A stretch of DNA of 39,611 nt. Origin: Acinetobacter phage vB_Aba_01KA. The stretch is from sequence record PV615262.1. The stretch is one strand, 5' to 3'. Position numbers and translations under genes: made by a program. The notes below the pieces were generated by a model that saw only the letters and a program-made list of their open reading frames with translations, was not told the DNA's origin and did no database searches. Each line of letters begins with the position of its first letter. Position 1 is the stretch's first letter. Below, piece after piece: positions 8,663 through 17,891 of the stretch.

Positions 8663-10420
8663 GTAAAGATTTAGTGGCGCGTCAGGCGCTAATGACAGCA
8701 CGTATGAAGTCAGACTTCGTGTTCTTCCTGTTCGTCCTGTGGAAAGCTCTGTCACTACCAGTCCCTACTCGCTGTCAGATTGACATGGCGAAGAAACTAT
8801 CGGCTGGGGACAACAGGCGTTTCATCCTACAGGCGTTCCGTGGTATCGGGAAGTCATTCATTACGTGCGCATTCGTGGTATGGAAACTGTGGAACAACCC
8901 AGACTTGAAGTTCATGATTGTGTCGGCATCAAAGGAACGAGCCGATGCGAACTCCATCTTCATCAAGCGCATCATCGACCTCATGCCTCAGCTTAGGGAA
9001 CTCAAACCTAAGCAGGGACAGCGAGATGCGGTTATCAGCTTCGACGTTGGGCCAGCCAAGCCAGACCACTCACCTTCGGTTAAGTCCGTTGGTATCACTG
9101 GTCAGTTGACTGGTAGTCGTGCTGACCTCCTGATTGCCGATGACGTGGAGGTTCCAAACAACTCAGCTACTCAGGCTGCCCGAGACCGTCTGTCAGAGCT
9201 TGTGAAAGAGTTCGACGCTATCCTGAAGCCGGGAGGTACAATCATCTATCTAGGTACTCCTCAGAACGAGATGACCCTGTACCGTGAGCTGGAAGGCCGT
9301 GGATACACCACTACCATCTGGCCCGCTCGCTACCCACGCGATAAGAAGGACTGGCAGTCTTACGGCGACCGTCTGGCTCCTATGCTTCAGGCAGAGCTGG
9401 AAGAGGACCCTGAGTCCTTCTACTGGCGTCCTACCGATGAAGTACGATTCGATGATACGGACCTGAAGGAACGTGAGCTGTCCTATGGTAAAGCTGGCTT
9501 CGCTCTACAGTTCATGCTTAACCCTAACCTGAGTGATGCCGAGAAGTACCCTCTGAAGCTCCGTGACCTTATCGTAGCAGACTTGGACCCAGCGTCTAGC
9601 CCAATGGTCTACCAATGGCTTCCTAACCCTCAGAACAAGCGTGAGGACGTTCCTAACGTTGGACTCATGGGTGACTCATACCACACGTATCAGACTGTAG
9701 GTTCTGCCTTCAGTTCGTACACCCAGAAGATTCTGGTCATTGACCCTAGTGGTCGTGGTAAGGATGAAACTGGTTATGCGGTACTGTATCAGCTCAACGG
9801 CTACATCTTCGCTATGGAAGTTGGCGGTATGCGAGGTGGCTATGAAGACTCTACGCTGGAAGCCTTAGCTAAGATTGGTCGTAAGTGGAAGGTCAACGAA
9901 TACGTCATTGAGGGTAACTTCGGTGATGGTATGTACCTTGAGCTATTCAAGCCTGTAGCTTCCCGTATTCATCCTGCTGCTGTAACTGAAGTGAAGAGTA
10001 AGGGTCAGAAGGAACTCCGCATCTGTGACGTTCTGGAGCCTATCATGGGGTCTCACCGACTTATCGTCAACGCTGCTGCTATCGTCCAAGATTACCAGTC
10101 GGCCTCTGATAAGGATGGTGTTCGTAACCCTATCTACTCTCTTCTACCAGATGACACGTATCTCTCGTGAACGTGGAGCATTGGCACACGATGACCGACT
10201 TGATGCGCTGGCTATCGGTGTACAGTTCTTCGTTGAGTCGATGGCTAAGGATGCCAACAAAGGCGAACGTGAAGTCACTGAGGAATGGCTGGAGGAACAG
10301 ATGGAGAACCCACGGAAAGGCTTCGAGTCCATCAACACGGAGTTCTGGGACAATGGGGTCCGGGTAACTCACGATACGGACGACGGGCTGGGACTAGGGT
10401 CCTACGTTACGTTCCACTAG
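8659..10420 (+). CDS. terminase large subunit (T7 gp19 homolog), one apparent frameshift near 10140-10170
   Basis: Strong colinear match to T7 gp19 ([75 protein letters not shown]); C-terminal piece 10025-10420 ([14 protein letters not shown]) is in another frame. Confidence 0.9.
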
Positions 10421-10430
10421 CTGAATGAAT

Positions 10431-10477
10431 AACTATAGGTGAAAACTGCATGAATACGCAGTTAGTAACCTATAGTT
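10431..10477 (+). other. nested perfect inverted repeat just after gene 19
   Basis: AACTATAGGT (10431-10440) and ACCTATAGTT (10468-10477) are perfect reverse complements; inner AACTGC/GCAGTT at 10444-10449 and 10458-10463. Confidence 0.5.
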
Positions 10478-10515
10478 ACTACCAGTCTAACCTACTGTTT
10501 TACAAGGAGTTTGGA

Positions 10516-10538
10516 CTTAACTATCACTATAGGGAAGA
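10516..10538 (+). promoter_or_regulatory. phage RNA polymerase promoter (phiOR-equivalent near the right genome end)
   Basis: CTTAACTATCACTATAGGGAAGA, consensus match; located after gene 19 as phiOR is in T7. Confidence 0.75.
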
Positions 10539-10716
10539 CCCCCGGTTACTTATAGTATTACTGTAGTGAATATACATATGCAGACTTTATGCAAGACCTT
10601 AGGAGGCAGACTCCGAGTTCTTACCTAAGGCTTGCACCAATGGAAGGAGGTGATATTAATCATAATCCCTCCAATACAGATAGTCACCGACCATAGATAC
10701 AGGAGGTATGTAGCAT

Positions 10717-10875
10717 ATGGAAAAGACCAAAGCTGTACTTAAAGCTCTGGCGACCAATCGAGCTACATACAGGTTTCTTGCTGCTGTTCTACTTGCTGCT
10801 GGCGTTACTGCTGGAAGTCAGTGGGTCGGGTGGGTCGAGGCTCTCGTATGTTCTCTGGTGTCTCAGTGTAATTAA
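10717..10875 (+). CDS. small hydrophobic protein (52 aa), position-equivalent to T7 gene 19.5
   Basis: ATG 10717 preceded by AGGAGGT; translation MEKTKAVLKALATNRATYRFLAAVLLAAGVTAGSQWVGWVEALVCSLVSQCN; below the 60-aa track cutoff. Confidence 0.4.
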   Translation: MEKTKAVLKALATNRATYRFLAAVLLAAGVTAGSQWVGWVEALVCSLVSQCN

Positions 10876-11315
10876 CGCAATCATGGTAACGATTCATGAG
10901 CGGAAGACCTAAGGTCAGTACGTGGATAAAGACCCACTCTACTGACCTTAGCTACTGTAGTCAAGGACTTTAGGTAACACCTTAATAGAAGCTCACTTAG
11001 GGTCATCCTACTTATTGGTCTATCCTAGTGTCGCCTGACCTACGGTCCTTGACCTACAGTGGCTGTGGCCTACAGTAGTGACGATGAGTTTTGGACCAAA
11101 AGTTTGAGACCACATCTCACAGTTCAAGAACCTCAAGTCTCCCCCATAGGCCCTCTTTAAGTCCAGACCAAAGGCCCTACCCTTGGACCGATGGTCAAGA
11201 CTTCAGGTCAACGATAGGTCTAGGCTATGGCTTAGGGTGGAGACGATAGGTAGAGGCTATAGGTCTTCTTTGAGTCTCTATCTGTATAGTGTTATAGTAT
11301 AACATTACGTCCTAC

Positions 11316-11398
11316 TACCTACAGTCTAACTACCTACAGTCTAACTACCTACAGTCACAACCATAAGACACCAACACCTACAGTCATAGACCTACAGT
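11316..11398 (+). repeat. tandem/dispersed CCTACAGT-containing short repeats in the terminal-repeat-adjacent region
   Basis: 15-bp unit TACCTACAGTCTAAC about three times in tandem (11316-11360), further CCTACAGT copies at 11377-11398 and 11051-11078; analogous in position to the CCTAAAG arrays near the T7 left end. Confidence 0.6.
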
Positions 11399-11451
11399 TA
11401 ATAGACACAAAGCTATAGACTTAAGGTCAAAGACATGTTAGTCAAAGACTA

Positions 11452-11474
11452 TATCCTCTTAGTCACTATGGGGC
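11452..11474 (+). promoter_or_regulatory. degenerate phage-promoter-like sequence (possible phiOL equivalent)
   Basis: TCTTAGTCACTATGGGGCC keeps the TCACTAT core but diverges at flanking positions; followed by an AT-rich stretch and the A1-like promoter, as for T7 phiOL. Confidence 0.3.
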
Positions 11475-11510
11475 CGACGATAGCTTAATCAATATTATTT
11501 AAATAACCTA

Positions 11511-11539
11511 TTGACTATAGGTCCAGACTATGGCTTAAT
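11511..11539 (+). promoter_or_regulatory. candidate host sigma70 promoter (A1-like)
   Basis: -35 TTGACT at 11511-11516 in a context resembling T7 A1 (TTGACT...TATAGG); -10 is weak (CTTAAT, 17-nt spacer). Confidence 0.35.
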
Positions 11540-11651
11540 AGCTTCCGTCAACACGACACGGCAACAACCGGATAGTGAAGACGCCGTGTCATCACGGTTA
11601 AGTAGACAGCCTGATAAGTCATACGAACAACAGGCAGATGACAGAAAGTAG

Positions 11652-11681
11652 TTGACAGGCAGTAACGACTTAAAGTAATAT
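11652..11681 (+). promoter_or_regulatory. host sigma70 early promoter (A2/A3-like)
   Basis: -35 TTGACA at 11652-11657, 18-nt spacer, -10 TAATAT at 11676-11681, followed by GTACCACAT as in T7 A3; upstream GGTTAAGTAGACAGCCTGATAAGTC is near-identical to the T7 early promoter region as I recall it. Confidence 0.55.
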
Positions 11682-11800
11682 GTACCACATCAACACGAAA
11701 CAACGGTGATGACCAACACTGAAATGGTCTACCTGAAGTCCTCTGACTGAAGGGAATGCTCTTTAACAATCTGGATAAACTCTTAATGTGCGCCGATAGC

Positions 11801-11857
11801 GATTAACTACAGGGCCTTTTAGTCTACATCTGAAGGCCCTGACTGATAGTCACTAAC
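11801..11857 (+). promoter_or_regulatory. RNA hairpin upstream of the first early gene (RNase III site, R0.3-like)
   Basis: GATTAACTAC-CAGGGCC-loop-GGCCCTG-ACTGATAGTCACTAAC; 7-bp stem; second copy at 12126-12175 has the same flanks and a covarying stem. Confidence 0.5.
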
Positions 11858-11866
11858 TTAACGCGG

Positions 11867-12121
11867 ATGGACACTATGAAACACTTAAGCACAATCACTA
11901 ATCGCAATGAAGTATTCGTGAACACTAAAGGTTATGCGTGGATTCAGCTTAAAGAGATGACAGGAGCGCGTCACCGTGTGGTAGTGCGCAAGGTATCAAG
12001 CAAGCAGTTCAGCAACTACAGCGTAGATACTGTGCGTATAGACAACGAGACATACCTGATAGACTCGCAGATAACCGTGAGTCCTACAGTGGGCGTCTCA
12101 GCTCCTTATTTCGCTAACTGA
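11867..12121 (+). CDS. hypothetical early protein (84 aa; start may be 11876)
   Basis: First ORF after the host promoters and R0.3-like hairpin; no motif I recognise. Confidence 0.5.
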   Translation: MDTMKHLSTITNRNEVFVNTKGYAWIQLKEMTGARHRVVVRKVSSKQFSNYSVDTVRIDNETYLIDSQITVSPTVGVSAPYFAN

Positions 12122-12125
12122 GAGT

Positions 12126-12175
12126 GATTAACTACAGGTCGTTAGCTTATAGCGGCCTGACTGATAGTCACTAAC
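12126..12175 (+). promoter_or_regulatory. second copy of the early-region RNA hairpin (RNase III-like)
   Basis: GATTAACTACAGGTCG-loop-CGGCCTGACTGATAGTCACTAAC; stem CAGGUCG/CGGCCUG including a G-U pair. Confidence 0.5.
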
Positions 12176-12193
12176 AACTGAGAGGATATAACT

Positions 12194-12691
12194 ATGGAAC
12201 GTAACGCTAACGCATACTATGAGCTGCTGGCTGCAACCGTTGAGGCATTTATCGAGCGTATTCAGTACGACCACCTGACTAAAGATGATGACTACAGCGA
12301 TGCGCTGCATGAGGTCGTAGACAGTCAGGTCCCGCTCTATTACCACGAGATTTTCACGGTGATGGCTGCTGATGGTATAGACCACGAGTTCGAAGACTCT
12401 GGGCTGATGCCTGAAACCAAAGACGTAACGCGTATCCTACAAGCTCGCATCTATGAGGCACTTTATAACGACGTGTCTAATAGCTTGGATGTAGTCTGGT
12501 TTGAGGATGAAGAGGCAGACGAAGAGGATGAATATTGGGTAGTTGACGCTAAAACAGGCGAACTAATTGTGCAATCTGTAGCTCTTGAGGTCGCTACTGC
12601 ATGTGCCGAGGTCAGCTATGCGGCAGGTCGCCACCTGAAGGTGGAAGACATCAATGATAACGTAGTGTTCGACCCTGAGGACTGCGAGTGA
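12194..12691 (+). CDS. ocr: Ocr-like DNA-mimic anti-restriction protein (T7 gp0.3 homolog) with a ~50-aa C-terminal extension
   Basis: [43 protein letters not shown] aligns with T7 Ocr ([43 protein letters not shown]); acidic run [11 protein letters not shown]; 165 aa versus 117 aa in T7. Confidence 0.8.
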
Positions 12692-12852
12692 TGATAACTT
12701 ACGGTCTCTGCCAGCACCACGTCACCATCGCCCGGATTATGGTCAAGACCGGGCGGTTAACCCATGATGAGACTATGCGTCTCCTGAAAGCGGTCTACGA
12801 GGGCCGCAAGTGCATTCACGATAGTCTACACGCTGAGGATAAACCACAATGA
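12691..12852 (+). CDS. small early protein, possible T7 gp0.4 (FtsZ inhibitor) homolog
   Basis: 53 aa; ATG overlaps the ocr stop (ATGA); ...YGL...LKAVYEGRKCI resembles T7 gp0.4 (...YGL...LKELYENNKAI) as I recall it. Confidence 0.4.
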   Translation: MITYGLCQHHVTIARIMVKTGRLTHDETMRLLKAVYEGRKCIHDSLHAEDKPQ

Positions 12853-12998
12853 AACGATACGCTATACAAATTCCGGGATGGTGTTACACAATGACTTGCT
12901 ACGGATACAACGAGAGAGACGCAAGATCCCGATTCCGTGCCCAGCAAGGTTTCGGTAAACGTCTACCAAATGGTACGGCTATCTGGGAGATTGACTAA
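12849..12998 (+). CDS. hypothetical small early protein (49 aa)
   Basis: ATG overlaps the previous stop (ATGA); MKRYAIQIPGWCYTMTCYGYNERDARSRF...; below the track cutoff. Confidence 0.35.
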   Translation: MKRYAIQIPGWCYTMTCYGYNERDARSRFRAQQGFGKRLPNGTAIWEID

Positions 12999-12999
12999 C

Positions 13000-13125
13000 A
13001 TGTACCAGATAACTTATAGCAGTGAACAGGCGTTCTACGATGGGTGCTACGAGATGATGAAGCGCGGTGCTTGCTACGTGGCTAATCACCATAGCCTGAC
13101 CATAACGCTGACAGGCGGGTACTGA
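13000..13125 (+). CDS. hypothetical small early protein (41 aa from ATG 13000)
   Basis: In frame with track ORF 12937-13125, but the start at 13000 follows GGGAGA and avoids overlap with the preceding ORF. Confidence 0.35.
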   Translation: MYQITYSSEQAFYDGCYEMMKRGACYVANHHSLTITLTGGY

Positions 13126-13281
13126 GTGATAGACGAGAGGTCATCGACTGATAGGTGGCCTCAAAGATTACCACTTAAATTGATAGAGGTTAACTATGAG
13201 TGTTGGACATTGGGTATGCTTATCTCCGGTCATCTTTCTGATAGCTTGGGGGATATACGACTGTATTAAACGGAAATCACT

Positions 13282-13479
13282 ATGAGTCTTGCACTATTGA
13301 TAGCCATAGGCTATGGACTTATCGCCTACGTGCTGGTGAGAGACATCAACAAAGCGCGTAAAGTCTACAAATTCAACTATGTATGTCTGGGCCGCTGGAC
13401 TGTACGTCAACCTAATGGACGATTCATGCGCAACTTAGCGAACGTCTGGGATATAGCAACTATTGGTAGCAAACTGTAA
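13282..13479 (+). CDS. hypothetical early protein with N-terminal transmembrane segment (65 aa)
   Basis: MSLALLIAIGYGLIAYVLV hydrophobic N-terminus; 3' end lies in direct-repeat copy 1. Confidence 0.5.
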   Translation: MSLALLIAIGYGLIAYVLVRDINKARKVYKFNYVCLGRWTVRQPNGRFMRNLANVWDIATIGSKL

Positions 13480-13483
13480 TGAA
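13434..13483 (+). repeat. direct repeat copy 1 (~50 bp, about 46/50 identical to 13722-13771)
   Basis: CTTAGCGAACGTCTGGGATATAGCAACTATTGGTAGCAAACTGTAATGAA; covers the last 14 codons and stop of the 13282-13479 ORF and the ATG of the next ORF. Confidence 0.8.
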
Positions 13484-13700
13484 CATAATTAAGGCAGCCG
13501 CGAAGTCTATTAGCGCCATGTTCCCACCACGGCAAGAGGTATGTACAGACCACAAGTTCGTACTATCCTGCGTTGTCGGCGACGAGTTTGACGGTTTTGA
13601 TAAGCTCGTTGTATGTGATTATTGTGGTCAAGAAGCTATACAGCACTCAAACGGTAAATTCGAACTAATTAACGAGGAAGGGGAAGGCGATGGTGAATAA
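13479..13700 (+). CDS. hypothetical small Cys-rich (zinc-ribbon-like) early protein, 73 aa
   Basis: Two Cys pairs (C..HKFVLSC and CDYC) and acidic C-terminus EEGEGDGE; gene is bracketed by the ~50-bp direct repeats. Confidence 0.5.
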   Translation: MNIIKAAAKSISAMFPPRQEVCTDHKFVLSCVVGDEFDGFDKLVVCDYCGQEAIQHSNGKFELINEEGEGDGE

Positions 13701-13721
13701 CAAAAACAACGTATTTGAATA

Positions 13722-13771
13722 CTTGGCGAACGTCTGGGATATAGCAACACTTGGGAGCAAACTGTAATGAA
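13722..13771 (+). repeat. direct repeat copy 2
   Basis: CTTGGCGAACGTCTGGGATATAGCAACACTTGGGAGCAAACTGTAATGAA; here non-coding but still encodes the relic peptide LANVWDIATLGSKL-stop followed by the ATG of ORF 13767. Confidence 0.8.
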
Positions 13772-14027
13772 AACCGTATACATTAACAAACCATCTATCC
13801 GTAGCCGTGTAGAGCAAATACAGCGTGACGAGTTCTTACATCGCCGCATGAAGGCTGAGGGCCATGAGTCCGAACTGATGTGTCTGGCGTATGGTGGACG
13901 ACCGATCACTGACGATGGTAAACTTCTAGTCTCAGGCTGGAAGGCGATGGACCAACGGTCAACCATCAAGCACACGACCAATGGTGACTTCAGCCATCTC
14001 CACGCTAACCAACTGATATGCAAGTGA
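13767..14027 (+). CDS. hypothetical early protein (86 aa)
   Basis: ORF starting at the ATG in repeat copy 2; no recognisable motif. Confidence 0.45.
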   Translation: MKTVYINKPSIRSRVEQIQRDEFLHRRMKAEGHESELMCLAYGGRPITDDGKLLVSGWKAMDQRSTIKHTTNGDFSHLHANQLICK

Positions 14028-14033
14028 TTATGA

Positions 14034-14056
14034 CTTAACTATCACTATAGGACTAA
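14034..14056 (+). promoter_or_regulatory. phage RNA polymerase promoter immediately upstream of the RNA polymerase gene
   Basis: CTTAACTATCACTATAGGACTAA, full consensus; +1 G about 14050, 75 nt upstream of the gene 1 ATG; leader contains a direct repeat AAGTGAAAGAC at 14071-14081 and 14095-14105. Confidence 0.7.
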
Positions 14057-14124
14057 AGGTCTAAGACTACAAGTGAAAGACCAAAGAGACTCTAAGTGAA
14101 AGACTAATAACAAGGACTTTAAGT

Positions 14125-16804
14125 ATGAGCGTCATCTCTATTGACAAACACGACTTCTCTGATGTGTCGAACGCCATTGAGCCGTTTAACCTGCTGGCTG
14201 ACCACTACGGGCAAGACCTTGCAGTCAAACAGCTTCAGCTTGAGCATGAGGCATACACTGAAGGCGAGCGACGTTTCATCAAAAACCTTGAGCGCCAGAC
14301 TGAGCGCGGGGAACTGGCAGACAATCAGGTCGCCAAGCCTTTGATGCAGACTCTGGTTCCTAAGATTGCGCAAGCCGTCAGGGAGTGGCATGAAGGTCCA
14401 GACGGGAAGCTGTCAACCTCTCGTCCTAGCGTAGCGTTCACCATGTTAAGCACCGAAGAGAAGGCCGTCAAGGACCGCTCTCTGCGTATCTCTTGCGAGT
14501 CTGCTGCGGTCATCATACTGAAGGTCATACTCTCCAAGCTGGTAAAGCCTGAAGGGATACCGATTACACCGATGGCCTCCGCGATAGGTCGCACACTTGA
14601 GGACGAAATCCGCTTCGGTCGCATCCGTGACAAGGAGAAGGAGCACTTCAAGAAGGCGATAGCTGAGAACTTGAACAAGCGAGCTGGGGCATCCTACAAG
14701 AAAGCCTACATGCAAGCGGTCGAGACATCCATGCTGGAGCAAGGCCAACTGGAAGATGCGTGGGGACTTGGAGTCCTACAGAGGCTGTCCACGTGGGCAT
14801 CAAGATGCTGGAGATTGTCATCCAGTCAACACAACTGGTCGAGCTTAAGCGGTACGGTGCTGGCAATGCAGCGGCTGACGTAGAGATGGTCCACCTGTCA
14901 GACTTCTGGGTCAAGAAGATGGCACAACGAGGATTCAGCCTTGCGGGTATCGCTCCAGTCTACCAGCCTTGCGTCGTTCCACCTAAGCAGTGGACTGGTG
15001 TCGTAGGTGGTGGGTACTGGGCCAAAGGTCGCAGACCGTTACCATTGATTCGCTTAGGGTCTAAATCAGCGGTGGCACGTTATGAAGACGTATACATGCC
15101 TGAAGTCTATGAAGCTGTGAATATCATCCAGAATACACCTTGGAAAGTGAACAAGAAGGTACTGGACGTGGTGAACATGGTCGAGAAGCTGAACAACACG
15201 CCTATTGATGACATCCCTCAGATGGAGCCACTGAAGCCTGAAGACTATGCGGGTGAGACCGAGGAGGAACTAAAGGCATGGAAGAAGCTGCTGCTGGTAT
15301 CTATCGCCGCGAGAAGGCCAGACAGTCACGCAGATTATCACTGAGCTTTATCGTCAACCAAGCGAATAAGTTCTCTCAGTTCAAGGCCATCTGGTTTCCA
15401 TACAACATGGACTGGCGCGGTCGAGTCTACGCTGTGCCGATGTTCAACCCACAGGGTAACGACATGCAGAAGGGTCTCCTGACTCTGGCAGTCGGTAAGC
15501 CTATTGGTGCTGACGGTTTCAAATGGCTGAAGGTCCATGGAGCAAACTGCGCGGGTGTCGATAAAGTCACCTTTGATGAGCGCATCAAGTGGGTGGAAGA
15601 CAACCACGACAACATTATGGCTGCTGCTAAGGCACCGATGGATAGCATTGAGTGGTGGGGCAAGTTCAGACTCTCCGTTCTGCTTCCTTGCGTTCTGCTT
15701 CGAGTATGCTGGTGTAATGCACCACGGATTGTCTTACTCCTGCTCACTGCCGATAGCGTTCGATGGGTCATGCTCAGGGATTCAGCACTTTAGCGCGATG
15801 CTTCGTGATCACGTCGGTGGACATGCAGTAAACCTAACGCCTTCCGGTAAGGTCCAAGACATCTACCGAATCGTTTCCGACCGCATTGAGGAAGAGCTTA
15901 AAGTCCTGCTGGTTAACGGCACGGACAACGAGATGGTAACTCACGAGGACAAGAAACTGGTGAGATTACCGAACGCCTCAAGCTGGGGACACGAGAGCTG
16001 GCCCGGCAGTGGCTGACTTACGGTATGTCACGCAAGGTCACTAAGCGTTCAGTAATGACTCTGGCCTATGGGTCGAAAGAGTACGGCTTCGCAGACCAAG
16101 TTTATGAGGACATCGTGATGCCAGCGATTGACTCAGGGTCTGGCGCTATGTTCACCGAGCCAAGCCAAGCGTCTCGCTTCATGGCTAAGATGATTTGGGA
16201 AGCTGTGAGCGTGACCGTAGTTGCTGCGGTTGACGCGATGAAGTGGCTTCAGGGTGCTGCCAAGCTGCTGGCTGCTGAAGTGAAGGACAAGAAGACTGGA
16301 GAAATCCTGAAGCCTTGCCTTCCGGTACACTGGGTAACACCTGATGGTTTCCCGGTATGGCAGGAATACCGCAAGAAGGATACCACTCGTCTGAACCTGA
16401 TGTTCTTAGGGTCATTCAACCTTCAGCCTACGGTCAACAAAGGCATGAAGAAAGAGCTGGACAAGCACAAGCAGGAGTCAGGCATTAGCCCGAACTTCGT
16501 CCACTCACAAGATGGTAGCCACCTACGCAAGACTGTAGTACACACGCATCGCAAGTATGGCGTGATGTCATTCGCAGTGATTCACGATAGCTTCGGGACC
16601 ATCCCTGCTGACGCTGAGTATCTGTTCCGTGGCGTCCGTGAGACGATGGTCGAGACCTACCGCGACAACGATGTGCTGCTTGACTTCTACGAGCAGTTCG
16701 AATGCCAGCTTCACGAGAGTCAGCGCGACAAGTTGCCTGAGCTTCCGAAGAAAGGTAAACTGAATATCGAAGACATCTTGTCTTCAGACTTTGCATTCGC
16801 TTAA
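14125..16804 (+). CDS. T7-type single-subunit DNA-directed RNA polymerase (gene 1), interrupted by about four single-base indels
   Basis: Five colinear pieces (14125-14883, 14760-15344, 15278-15793, 15537-16016, 16025-16804) match T7 RNAP throughout (FNLLADHYG, ARFGRIRD, PCVVPPK, AIWFPYNMDWRGRVYAV, DGSCSGIQHFSAM, HDSFGT, ends SDFAFA). Shifts near 14767 (G run), 15287 (A run), 15665 and 15955 (A run). Confidence 0.9.
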
Positions 16805-16819
16805 TAGGAGAAGAAGTAT

Positions 16820-17050
16820 ATGTCAATGAAACTTGTAGCACACAACAAAGCATTCACCGATGGGTCTGGACGTTGCCATGTAGAGCTTACTTATAAGGAT
16901 TTAGTCATTCTCCGAGACAGATTACAAGCGGGTGTGACCGGGTGGATTCAACCTAGCGAGTACAGCCTTATAGCTTCGATTGATGAAGTGCTTAACGCGT
17001 GGATGCAAGACGAGCGTACTCAGTATCCGTCATTCCCTAGAATTAAATAA
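16820..17050 (+). CDS. hypothetical protein (76 aa) between gene 1 and the phi1.1 promoter
   Basis: RBS AGGAGA 7 nt upstream of the ATG; no T7 counterpart that I recognise. Confidence 0.5.
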   Translation: MSMKLVAHNKAFTDGSGRCHVELTYKDLVILRDRLQAGVTGWIQPSEYSLIASIDEVLNAWMQDERTQYPSFPRIK

Positions 17051-17059
17051 GGAGAGGTT

Positions 17060-17275
17060 ATGAAATTTGCACACAAGCAGGCTGGCGTTAATGGCGGGAC
17101 TCAAATCGTGACCGTAACAGAATACAACGGCAAGGGTCTGGTGAAAACCACGGTCATTCCTACAGAAATGTCAAAGCAGCTTAACGTCCCATTCAAGACC
17201 CTCGTCGATCTTGTTGAATCTAGCCACGAGAAATACCTGAAAGACGCAGTGTCCAAGCTGGAGCAGACCAAATGA
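17060..17275 (+). CDS. hypothetical protein (71 aa)
   Basis: RBS AAGGAGAGG; followed by a possible 25-aa hydrophobic ORF (17272-17349). Confidence 0.5.
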   Translation: MKFAHKQAGVNGGTQIVTVTEYNGKGLVKTTVIPTEMSKQLNVPFKTLVDLVESSHEKYLKDAVSKLEQTK

Positions 17276-17350
17276 CAGACTTACAGTTACTGGCCTTGTG
17301 GCTAGGAGCACTCGCAGTATTCACTTTAATCCAACGCAGAAGTGGTTAAC

Positions 17351-17373
17351 CCTAAACTATCACTATAGGATTA
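17351..17373 (+). promoter_or_regulatory. phage RNA polymerase promoter (phi1.1-equivalent)
   Basis: CCTAAACTATCACTATAGGATTA, consensus match. Confidence 0.8.
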
Positions 17374-17425
17374 GACTCAAGGTCATGACTAAAAGTCGTG
17401 GCCTTCATGATTAACCCTAACTAAT
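17371..17425 (+). promoter_or_regulatory. conserved RNA hairpin, probable RNase III site (R1.1-like)
   Basis: TTAGACTCAAGGTCATGAC-TAAAA-GTCGTGGCCTTCATGATTAA; stem with two G-U wobbles at the same positions as the 8116 and 24121 copies. Confidence 0.5.
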
Positions 17426-17443
17426 TCAATCAGGAGCTACACC

Positions 17444-17623
17444 ATGTATCAGAACACTATCAACTTCGAGCGCATCCGTGAACGTCAGCAGACTGAAGAT
17501 TACATTCCGAAGGGCCGCAAGCTGAACAAGACTAAGCGGGGCGGAGGTGTCAAAGGCGCTTTCCGTAACGCTGAAGGCAAAGACTCTCTGGTTAACCAAG
17601 AGAAGTATTTCGTAGGAGCATAA
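17444..17623 (+). CDS. gp1.1 homolog (59 aa)
   Basis: KGRKLNKTKR motif as in T7 gp1.1; strong RBS AGGAGC context; below the track cutoff. Confidence 0.55.
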   Translation: MYQNTINFERIRERQQTEDYIPKGRKLNKTKRGGGVKGAFRNAEGKDSLVNQEKYFVGA

Positions 17624-17627
17624 CAAA

Positions 17628-17891
17628 ATGGGCCGACTTTATAGTGGCAACCTAAACGCTTTCAAAGCAGCGTGTAACAGGCTCTATCAGTTAGACTTCG
17701 CTGTAATATCTCAGGAGTTTCAAGACCTTGCGTCACGCCAAGAGTGTATGAGACTCATGGTGGAGGACCGAGCTGGTAACATCTTCGCGCTTGAGACCTT
17801 CGCACACTACGATGAAGACGTGCTGTATAATACCGCAACCGACTACCTCAACGGTCTCGCTGACCATCTCGACACATGGAGCAAAGAATAA
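17628..17891 (+). CDS. gp1.2 homolog (host dGTPase inhibitor)
   Basis: MGRLYSGNLNAFKAA...EDRAGN...HYDEDVLYN is closely colinear with T7 gp1.2 as I recall it. Confidence 0.7.
   Translation: MGRLYSGNLNAFKAACNRLYQLDFAVISQEFQDLASRQECMRLMVEDRAGNIFALETFAHYDEDVLYNTATDYLNGLADHLDTWSKE

Follow-up and report, generated by a model that had tools for sequence, protein, structure and literature searches.

The early region of a K1F-like phage genome: small genes, predicted RNase III-type hairpins and no gp0.7 kinase

What occupies the early region of a T7-like phage when the gp0.7 protein kinase is missing, and is that absence peculiar to one phage or a property of its lineage? The question is raised by positions 11,867 to 14,027 of the 39,611-nucleotide sequence of Acinetobacter phage vB_Aba_01KA (PV615262.1), the whole of which is referred to as the window. 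The window is the same genome, circularly permuted, as that of the K1F-like Escherichia phage vB_Eco_1RS of the genus Kayfunavirus (PV615263.1), at 99.9% identity and with single-base indels as the differences, seven of them within 7.4 kb. The reading favoured here, with a probability of about 85%, is that the block represents the class I (early) region of a Kayfunavirus of the K1F clade, having a hairpin-segmented transcript, exchangeable cassettes and no kinase.

Gene content of the early block

The block is made up of densely packed small genes, all on the + strand, with sigma-70-like promoters on one side and the gene for the phage RNA polymerase on the other. An earlier note, made from the sequence alone, had listed seven or eight ORFs of 41 to 165 aa between the host promoters and gene 1. 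The ORFs are real and lie where it placed them, but one of those listed is spurious and a 29-aa gene, smaller than the sizes it covered, had been missed, and the curated block has nine genes of 29 to 165 aa covering approximately 90% of its 2161 bases:

11876..12121, + strand: 81-aa basic protein (84 aa if the start is 11867), K1F gp0.2-like; phrog_10124, E = 1e-39
12194..12691, + strand: Ocr, putative DNA-mimic anti-restriction protein, 165 aa; PF08684, PDB 1S7Z
12691..12852, + strand: 53-aa remote T7 gp0.4 homolog (FtsZ inhibitor family), start overlapping the ocr stop; phrog_5058
12849..12998, + strand: 49-aa basic protein, ATGA-coupled to the upstream gene; phrog_13225, E = 8e-31
13000..13125, + strand: 41-aa protein; phrog_33188
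13196..13285, + strand: 29-aa membrane peptide gene (predicted), intact ORF, ATGA-coupled to the next gene
13282..13479, + strand: 65-aa protein with predicted N-terminal membrane helix and basic tail; phrog_2385, E = 2e-31
13479..13700, + strand: 73-aa acidic Cys/His-rich protein (CxxH...C...CxxC), mobile cassette; phrog_32657, E = 2e-37
13767..14027, + strand: 86-aa basic protein, K1F gp0.38-like; phrog_7066, E = 1e-38
14125..16804, + strand: gene 1, T7-type RNA polymerase (tblastn), the right-hand boundary of the block, interrupted by four indels

Substitutions relative to one to eight relatives are in excess at third codon positions in all nine genes, for instance 1/1/13 in the 49-aa gene, 0/3/9 in the 41-aa gene, 11/4/58 in the 73-aa gene and 28/4/49 in another. 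The genes return with matching lengths and in matching order in independent genomes (eight relatives with collinear homologs), and the eight genes of at least 41 aa match PHROG profiles; the 29-aa peptide had no match in the PHROG scan. The rejected 47-aa GTG ORF (13126-13269) has codon-position substitutions of 39/30/23 and an in-frame stop in one relative; beneath it lie a conserved RNA hairpin and the gene for the 29-aa membrane peptide.

Because the window assembly carries indel errors, single gene starts and stops may be misplaced, although the relatives agree with them. Gene 1 has four single-base indels relative to K1F, at 14766, 15288, 15667 and 15957, with T7 gp1 giving tblastn matches in frames 1, 3, 2, 3 and 2, and the GenBank annotation of vB_Eco_1RS shows several further split genes. 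Together with the seven differences from that record, one of which, a G run near 13249, alters an ORF call in it, these errors speak for a reading in which sequencing indels have broken up one or several larger genes, perhaps the kinase, into the small ORFs. Such fragmentation is largely refuted and now barely credible, since ORFs of the same lengths and boundaries occur in independently sequenced relatives including K1F, the eight genes of at least 41 aa match short PHROG profiles end to end, two kinase queries find nothing in any frame of the window and the window version of the G run yields the 29-aa gene found in relatives.

The overlapping stop/start codons pointed out in the earlier note were located as ATGA at 12849-12852 and 13282-13285, and further junctions are TGATG at 12689-12693 and TAATG at 13477-13481. 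A gap of 1 nt (12998/13000) separates the 49-aa and 41-aa genes, and a Shine-Dalgarno-like motif precedes each early gene. With genes abutting or overlapping in this manner, translation within a transcript segment is probably coupled.

Profile searches and structure prediction had been proposed for each ORF. The former allow a function to be assigned by homology to two genes, ocr and the gp0.4-like 53-aa ORF. Scanned against NCBIfam and PADLOC, the nine proteins gave nothing but one DrmA match at E = 0.013, which was treated as noise, and every Pfam match on the ORFs of unassigned function was far below threshold. The remaining seven genes are still without assigned function after Pfam, PHROG, NCBIfam, PADLOC and PDB searches; their products fall into known phage protein families, and from dozens to hundreds of phages with sequenced genomes carry them. 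Structure prediction was less productive: the AF2 model of the 81-aa protein is all-beta (pLDDT 62.5) with no fold match in the structure search, and that of the 86-aa protein, from a 25-sequence alignment, is unusable (pLDDT 49.5). PDB sequence searches with the 84-, 86- and 73-aa proteins returned no useful match.

The 81-aa protein has 37 homologs, mostly called as 81 aa, all unnamed or 'hypothetical' and encoded on contigs of about 40 kb. The 49-aa gene occurs in 88 phage records; among the Kayfunavirus genomes fetched it is found besides only in PDP351P4 (96% aa identity), and after that the nearest copies, at about 87% aa, belong to podoviruses of Yersinia, Enterobacter, Salmonella, Citrobacter and Klebsiella. 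The 41-aa protein is 95-98% identical in three relatives. The 29-aa peptide, with a maximum hydropathy of 2.13, is 72-100% identical in five relatives; Bas105 has an annotation for it, and so has EPr2, there as a TM protein. The 65-aa protein (hydropathy 2.49, pI 10.4) is 89-97% identical in seven of eight relatives, the match in 101118UKE1 being split in two pieces. Neither the 49-aa nor the 65-aa gene was retained as a T7 gp0.6 homolog, there being no cross-matches, despite the label 'gene 0.6' on the 65-aa gene in the K1F RefSeq record. In all Kayfunavirus early regions fetched, no other gene stands between the 86-aa gene and gene 1; none of the 125 homologs of its product has a Pfam domain, and an exhaustive HMMER search with the family profile found just 15 clusters among 1.84 billion representatives, all short or marginal, and therefore no link to a larger known protein. 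The seven products without assigned function would comprise two small membrane proteins, one Cys/His-rich acidic protein and four small soluble proteins, and may be non-essential host-takeover or anti-defence accessories.

Promoters and predicted processing hairpins

The block is bordered and subdivided by the following elements:

11512..11540, + strand: sigma-70 promoter-like site, candidate A1-like early promoter (TTGACT, 17 nt, CTTAAT), read from the sequence
11652..11681, + strand: sigma-70 promoter-like site (TTGACA, 18 nt, TAATAT; 10/12 matches), best site of the consensus scan
11795..11866, + strand: RNase III-type processing hairpin (predicted), copy 1, before the first gene; -25.8 kcal/mol, z = -3.8, two-tier
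12116..12193, + strand: RNase III-type processing hairpin (predicted), copy 2, upstream of ocr; -23.9 kcal/mol, z = -3.3
13120..13195, + strand: RNase III-type processing hairpin (predicted), copy 3, beneath the spurious 47-aa GTG ORF; -20.1 kcal/mol, z = -2.4
14035..14052, + strand: phage RNA polymerase promoter directly upstream of gene 1, match to TTAACTATCACTATAGGA

By analogy with T7, the host sigma-70 RNA polymerase would transcribe the block rightwards after genome entry into one long mRNA, starting at promoters near 11.5-11.7 kb. The A1-like candidate, which a simple consensus scan did not report, may function as such a promoter, and the segment around it (11500-11827) is 77% identical to the Kayfunavirus IMM-002. 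For the site at 11652..11681 a promoter function is suggested by its position and by analogy with the T7 A promoters, because the number of sites in the consensus scan of the region was not above shuffle expectation. At the other end of the block, the motif TTAACTATCACTATAGGA has 10 matches in the window against 0.03 expected, and the position of the copy before gene 1 is kept in K1F and six other relatives.

The three hairpins of the window and both copies in IMM-002 have the same fold, with two stems and an asymmetric internal loop, and lie between cistrons (z -2.4 to -3.8). The 3' arm of copy 2 is 100% identical to that of copy 1, copy 1 aligns with the T7 R0.3 site, and copy 3, part of which bears a terminator annotation in phage ASO2B, matches the IMM-002 hairpin located downstream of the kinase gene. 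An alignment of eight sites, the three window copies and T7 R0.3 among them, has 19 consensus pairs, 9 of which show compensatory changes in what is a small sample of related copies. Position 890 of T7, known as the cleavage position of R0.3 (Dunn and Studier 1983), falls in the internal loop. No Rfam model matched the hairpins in a scan of positions 10300-14300. Located near 11.8, 12.15 and 13.15 kb, the three hairpins are predicted RNase III cutting sites, at which cleavage would divide the transcript ahead of gene 1 into three segments: the first with the 81-aa gene, the second with ocr, the gp0.4-like gene and the 49-aa and 41-aa genes, and the third with the 29-aa, 65-aa, 73-aa and 86-aa genes.

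The layout resembles the class I region of T7 (genes 0.3-1) in an early Ocr, a gp0.4-family gene overlapping the Ocr stop codon, R0.3-type hairpins between groups of genes and small non-essential genes before gene 1. It differs in lacking gp0.5, gp0.6 and gp0.7 homologs, in an additional gene upstream of ocr, in an Ocr about 50 aa longer and in the phage promoter directly before gene 1, where the T7 annotation shows none.

Ocr and the gp0.4-like gene

The suggestion of an Ocr-like protein is borne out for the second gene after the promoters. Its product scored 101.1 bits with Pfam PF08684 (cut-off 25, E = 5.3e-29) and E = 1e-53 with phrog_2568, and residues 11-113 match the T7 Ocr structure 1S7Z at E = 8.3e-24. 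It is strongly acidic (pI 4.1) and the gene is preceded by an R0.3-type hairpin. A DNA mimic blocking type I restriction is the function its homology points to. A C-terminal extension of roughly 50 aa without counterpart in T7 Ocr is present in some relatives and missing in others; the extension alone had no match in a PHROG scan.

The 53-aa ORF overlapping the ocr stop codon had been named as possibly gp0.4-like, and at profile level this was substantiated. Its product matches phrog_5058 at E = 4e-25 and T7 gp0.4 itself matches the same profile at E = 9e-5. Comparison by hhalign of its 19-sequence family with a 7-sequence gp0.4 family gave 96.1% (E = 3e-9, 41 columns), and with the single T7 gp0.4 sequence 78.6%. 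PF26807 (Phage_T7_GP04) is assigned to 28 of 28 close homologs, which are 69-88% identical to the 53-aa protein, these being precomputed matches on the homologs. The two proteins have a common motif (YGL, x4, V, x7, MV, x2, G, then AM, x2, LK, x, (L/V)Y, x2, (N/R)K), and T7 gp0.4 is likewise about 50 aa and encoded directly after gene 0.3 with a stop/start overlap, T7 0.3 and 0.4 sharing nucleotide 1278. The identity is only 34% over 41 residues, however, and PHROGs places T7 gp0.4 and the 53-aa protein in separate families, 7202 and 5058. A weak SHOCT-like Pfam match of the 53-aa protein (E = 0.004) was rejected in favour of gp0.4. The gene is read as a diverged T7 gp0.4, whose product would most likely inhibit FtsZ.

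T7 gp0.4 is cited as an FtsZ inhibitor (Kiro et al. 2013, via PMC9372555). A 2022 paper stated gp0.4 to be absent from K1F, the relationship being missed by BLAST-level searches; infection with K1F nonetheless led to FtsZ mislocalisation and filamentation, and according to the paper a novel peptide must act against FtsZ (PMC9372555). Contrary to that statement, profile comparison places a diverged gp0.4 homolog in the canonical position in K1F as well as in vB_Aba_01KA. Since K1F is said to be without gp0.4 and yet disturbs FtsZ, the gp0.4-like ORF is the obvious candidate; the specific claim that it is the FtsZ inhibitor of K1F is offered tentatively, as a smaller companion to the equally tentative proposal on the 73-aa protein below.

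Kinase absence and exchange of cassettes

The earlier note held that no ORF in the block is large enough for the gp0.7 kinase, and the searches agree. The largest ORF has 165 aa, the best tblastn match to T7 gp0.7 in the whole window has E = 1 and that to the IMM-002 kinase, of Kayfunavirus type, E = 0.58, and no kinase is annotated in the near-identical vB_Eco_1RS record. T7 gp0.5 and gp0.6A gave tblastn values of E >= 0.12 in the window, and the PHROGs matched by these two proteins (16572, 8393, 29241) were matched by no window ORF. In IMM-002 a 244-aa kinase sits between two RNase III-type hairpins, and the same layout is found in phage B1 (PMC12785254). The corresponding slot in the window, 13120-13195, has a single intact hairpin and no kinase remnant.

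A rival reading takes the missing kinase for a recent, strain-specific deletion, made for instance in the laboratory or in adaptation to a host, and not for a trait of the lineage. Gene 0.7 is dispensable to T7, stocks of which often have deletions in that part of the genome; T7 records with only a fragment of 0.7 exist and some members of Kayfunavirus do carry the kinase. With the slot clean and the kinase equally missing from eight other early regions of Kayfunavirus phages that differ in country and year, the type phage K1F included (by its annotated record and our own tblastn), a recent deletion is very improbable. In the K1F clade the kinase is normally missing, and vB_Aba_01KA is no exception. 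Kinases at least 60% identical to that of IMM-002 were found in 44 phage records, a minority IMM-002-like clade.

K1F (NC_007456) has the same order of gp0.2-like gene, extended ocr, gp0.4-like gene, hairpin, 65-aa gene, 86-aa gene, phage promoter and gene 1, with 78-97% protein identity and also no kinase, but is without the 49-aa, 41-aa, 29-aa and 73-aa genes. Kinase-bearing Kayfunaviruses (IMM-002, Enterobacter phage B1, the Dev2/SH4 group) share the 65-aa and 86-aa genes, the hairpins and the gene 1 context, and differ in having a SAM-degrading gp0.3 instead of Ocr and a 243-244-aa kinase between two hairpins. The gp0.7-type kinase is read as a cassette which the IMM-002/B1 clade carries and the K1F clade lacks, and in its absence host shut-off would be left to gp2, annotated as 'RNA polymerase inhibitor' in the vB_Eco_1RS record, and possibly to Ocr.

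Exchange is apparent around the 73-aa gene, which is flanked by a 51-nt direct repeat, D1:

13433..13483, + strand: 51-nt junction sequence, first copy (3' end of the 65-aa gene and TAATG)
13721..13771, + strand: 51-nt junction sequence, second copy, in the ribosome-binding context of the 86-aa gene

The copies are 92% identical at a spacing of 288 nt. Relatives without the 73-aa gene have the 65-aa and 86-aa genes abutting directly, and IMM-002 has an endonuclease VII/HNH gene in the slot. The 73-aa gene is found in 56 records, all but two named Escherichia phages or Kayfunavirus, and is split between Kayfunavirus and siphoviruses of roughly 44 kb such as Kagunavirus K1ind1, at about 80% identity; in LM33_P1-type genomes it occupies another slot. 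The 49-aa gene, with its nearest relatives beyond PDP351P4 in podoviruses of other enterobacterial hosts, also speaks for exchange. The block is read as built of exchangeable cassettes bordered by conserved hairpins and conserved gene junctions.

One of the small proteins of unassigned function could have replaced gp0.7 without homology to it, taking over transcription shut-off or a broad anti-defence role in a re-tooled region. Seven early proteins are without assigned function, and the 73-aa protein, common to Kayfunavirus and unrelated E. coli siphoviruses and encoded in a hot-swap slot, has a distribution typical of host-specific accessory or counter-defence genes. None of them has a match in PADLOC, Pfam, NCBIfam or PDB, however, and kinase-bearing Kayfunaviruses also have the 65-aa and 86-aa homologs and, by size and order only, the 41-aa ORF, so these genes do not alternate with the kinase. 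Such a replacement is considered improbable. Somewhat less doubtful, though still tentative, is the proposal that the 73-aa protein acts as a novel counter-defence or takeover factor specific to the host.

The reading as a K1F-clade class I region makes the early block ordinary for a K1F-like phage and already represented in databases; as a genome feature it has little weight, since an early region of this kind is to be expected in the phage, which has been sequenced and deposited. For T7-like early regions in general it illustrates how kinase, homing endonuclease and small accessory genes swap among slots between RNase III hairpins or conserved junctions, and this cassette picture can guide the choice of candidate anti-defence genes and the engineering of therapeutic phages of the K1F type.

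Nine small genes ahead of gene 1

The earlier note described 11867-14027 as a compact early region of seven or eight small ORFs between host promoters and gene 1. The compact block stands, with all the surviving sizeable ORFs on the + strand, and the count is corrected to nine.

Early genes of the window (coordinates, strand, product)
11876-12121, +, 81-aa gene (84 aa from 11867; the second ATG is the start in most database homologs)
12194-12691, +, Ocr, 165 aa
12691-12852, +, 53-aa gene
12849-12998, +, 49-aa gene
13000-13125, +, 41-aa gene
13196-13285, +, 29-aa gene
13282-13479, +, 65-aa gene
13479-13700, +, 73-aa gene
13767-14027, +, 86-aa gene

Comparison with relatives shows that these nine ORFs are real genes. 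Third codon positions were enriched for substitutions in 9/9 in the nucleotide comparison, relatives sequenced independently encode proteins of the same length in collinear order, and a Shine-Dalgarno-like motif precedes each gene. The overlapping stop and start codons previously remarked upon were found as ATGA twice, TGATG once and TAATG once, together with one 1-nt spacer. A 47-aa ORF with a GTG start at 13126-13269, also annotated in the GenBank record, was rejected as a gene. Its substitutions fell 39/30/23 by codon position without a third-position excess, one relative carries an in-frame stop, and the ORF lies across a conserved hairpin and the gene for the 29-aa membrane peptide, a gene that other annotators have called.

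The window is a complete, circularly permuted genome of about 39.6 kb. Its stretch 11300-14200 matches vB_Eco_1RS (PV615263.1) at 99.9% identity; this Escherichia phage, a K1F-like Kayfunavirus of the Studiervirinae, came from sewage and was isolated on E. coli. Segments of the early region also occur in 428 further phage records, with identities of 76-95%. Gene 1 (14125-16804), encoding the T7-type RNA polymerase, lies in five reading frames with four single-base indels relative to the type phage K1F, at positions 14766, 15288, 15667 and 15957, three of which are deletions within homopolymer runs, and the GenBank entry for this phage gives it as six CDS. Because a propagated isolate needs its RNA polymerase, the indels splitting gene 1 are almost certainly sequencing errors. 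Over the 7.4 kb of 10300-17700 the window differs from PV615263.1 by 2 mismatches and 7 single-base indels, and the record also breaks up the primase/helicase, ligase, tail and internal virion protein genes into several annotated pieces. The sole indel inside the early region, at a G run near 13249, alters the ORF call from 52 aa in the record to 29 aa plus the spurious 47 aa in the window, and the window version agrees with the relatives. The early-region ORFs agree with those of the relatives and appear unaffected by indel errors.

Short tandem or dispersed repeats were observed in the non-coding left end at 11309-11356 and 11211-11266 (GTCTAACTACCTACAGTC three times at 15-nt spacing, plus ACGATAGGTCTAGGCTATGG-like copies). 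By analogy with T7, these repeats are probably part of the terminal-repeat and packaging region, and several tiny 'hypothetical protein' CDS of the record located there are likely spurious.

Kinase absence, predicted processing hairpins and gene cassettes

The reported lack of the T7 gp0.7 protein kinase held in every search. A six-frame tblastn of the window with T7 gp0.7 reached a best E of 1, gp06 of IMM-002 (a 244-aa kinase from the same genus) had no match in the window (best E = 0.58), and no kinase is among the entries annotated in the deposited record. Eight other Kayfunavirus early regions, K1F included, have only small ORFs from ocr to gene 1 and no kinase match. Homologs of gp0.7 are present in 913 phage records overall, and the Kayfunavirus-type kinase (at least 60% identity to that of IMM-002) in 44, Enterobacter phage B1 being a published carrier (PMC12785254). 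Since it is present in these 44 records and absent from the window and the eight early regions, the kinase is an accessory gene that varies within the genus. On these comparisons the K1F clade is without kinase, and its absence is the norm of the lineage and not peculiar to this phage.

Three elements at 11795-11866, 12116-12193 and 13120-13195 share one common fold (z-scores -3.8, -3.3 and -2.4, respectively), in which an asymmetric internal loop separates a lower stem from an upper stem of 9-10 bp. The upper stem varies in sequence among the copies with pairing kept. All three can be aligned with the R0.3 RNase III site of T7 and its equivalents in K1F and IMM-002, and the consensus structure of 19 pairs has compensatory changes in 9. 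The 5′ end of each hairpin is at or overlaps the upstream stop codon, and the 3′ end is just before the next ribosome-binding site. From this conservation and placement between genes the region is read as one processed early transcript, which would start from sigma-70-like promoters near 11512 and 11652 and, before gene 1, would be cut into three groups of translationally coupled genes. A promoter scan of the region gave sites that were not enriched over shuffles. Directly upstream of gene 1, at 14035-14052, is a consensus promoter for the phage polymerase (TTAACTATCACTATAGGA; the genome has 10 of these). It is conserved at this place in K1F and six other relatives and would let the polymerase boost transcription of its own gene. 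T7, as annotated, has no phage promoter directly before gene 1.

The kinase gene of IMM-002 is located exactly between two hairpins of the R0.3-like type, the downstream one corresponding to the third hairpin of the window, and at the same place the window has one hairpin and no kinase remnant. Because of this difference the early genes can be said to behave as hairpin-bounded cassettes. The 73-aa gene is flanked by a 51-nt direct repeat (13433-13483 and 13721-13771, 92% identical, 288 nt apart), in which the terminal part of the 65-aa gene and the TAATG junction are duplicated, with the second copy just before the 86-aa gene. This repeat looks like the footprint of a cassette insertion. The 65-aa and 86-aa genes abut in relatives without the 73-aa gene, its slot is occupied by an endonuclease VII/HNH gene in IMM-002, and in LM33_P1-type phages the 73-aa gene is found in another slot, behind the gp0.4-like gene. 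A cassette and RNase III architecture of this kind would explain both the kinase in some members of the genus and its absence here.

Ocr and seven genes without assignable function

The Ocr-like ORF was recognised correctly, with 101 bits in Pfam and E = 8e-24 against the structure of T7 Ocr, the anti-restriction DNA mimic. At its C terminus is an extension of about 50 aa (residues ~114-165, window 12533-12691) that contains a hydrophobic stretch and is lacking in T7 Ocr. The extension is present in K1F, ASO2B, EPr2, ST1749 and 101118UKE1, absent from Bas105, PDP351P4 and AN24P4, and without a PHROG match when searched alone.

Seven of the remaining genes have no assignable function and gave no significant match in Pfam, NCBIfam, PADLOC or PDB. 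The six of at least 41 aa fall in PHROGs of 'unknown function', and the 29-aa peptide has no PHROG match. A hydrophobic helix is present in both the 29-aa and the 65-aa product, and another annotator calls them transmembrane proteins. For the 81-aa protein a low-confidence all-beta model was obtained, without fold matches.

The acidic 73-aa product has a conserved CxxH...C...CxxC pattern. Its gene occurs in 56 records, nearly all named Escherichia phages or Kayfunavirus, and the carriers fall into Kayfunavirus podoviruses and ~44-kb siphoviruses (e.g. Kagunavirus K1ind1) at ~80% identity, the protein being 72-87% identical in siphoviruses that infect E. coli, such as K1ind1, Golestan and Bas73. 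This Cys/His-rich protein is encoded at 13479-13700 in the window and 2502-2717 in L011, and the K1ind1 record leaves the gene unannotated. Few Kayfunavirus genomes have the 49-aa gene (PDP351P4 copy, 96% aa identity), and its closest copies elsewhere (~87%) are in podoviruses of Yersinia, Enterobacter, Salmonella, Citrobacter and Klebsiella. Cronobacter, Pectobacterium, Serratia and Enterobacter myoviruses of 145-150 kb have more distant copies (46-55%), and Pseudomonas phages have weaker matches (37-50%). The 86-aa family comprises about 15 sequence clusters only among 1.84 billion representatives, and structure prediction yielded no usable model. An unannotated 86-aa homolog in the K1F reference (L004, 2208-2465) has an in-frame stop at codon 13, which may reflect either a sequencing error or a true pseudogene.

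A diverged gp0.4 homolog in the K1F clade

The suspected gp0.4-like ORF is the 53-aa gene, with profile-level homology to T7 gp0.4. T7 gp0.4 matches the PHROG of this gene, 5058, with E = 9e-5, and hhalign gave 78.6% for the 53-aa family against the single T7 sequence and 96.1% for family against family (E = 3e-9, 41 of ~50 residues). A precomputed match to PF26807 (Phage_T7_GP04) was present in 28/28 close homologs in a large protein collection. The T7 gene has the same place after gene 0.3 and the same stop/start overlap. Together these profiles and positions argue that the 53-aa gene is a remote, diverged homolog of T7 gp0.4.

T7 gp0.4 is an FtsZ-binding protein that blocks division (Kiro et al. 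2013, cited through PMC9372555), and K1F too causes FtsZ mislocalisation and filamentation (PMC9372555). The same paper stated from BLAST that K1F 'lacks the 0.4 genes' and hence that the responsible peptide is 'currently unknown'. The K1F ortholog of the 53-aa ORF is YP_338091.1 (82% identical), and given its homology to gp0.4 and the FtsZ phenotype of K1F it is thus the obvious candidate for the peptide disturbing FtsZ.

The earlier observation was correct and its interpretation essentially right, and the early region is ordinary, being the expected and already deposited block of the K1F clade. The gain is modest: the gene list is corrected, the layout of cassettes and predicted RNase III sites is described, and a diverged gp0.4 homolog, already captured by a current Pfam family, is identified where the K1F literature says none exists.
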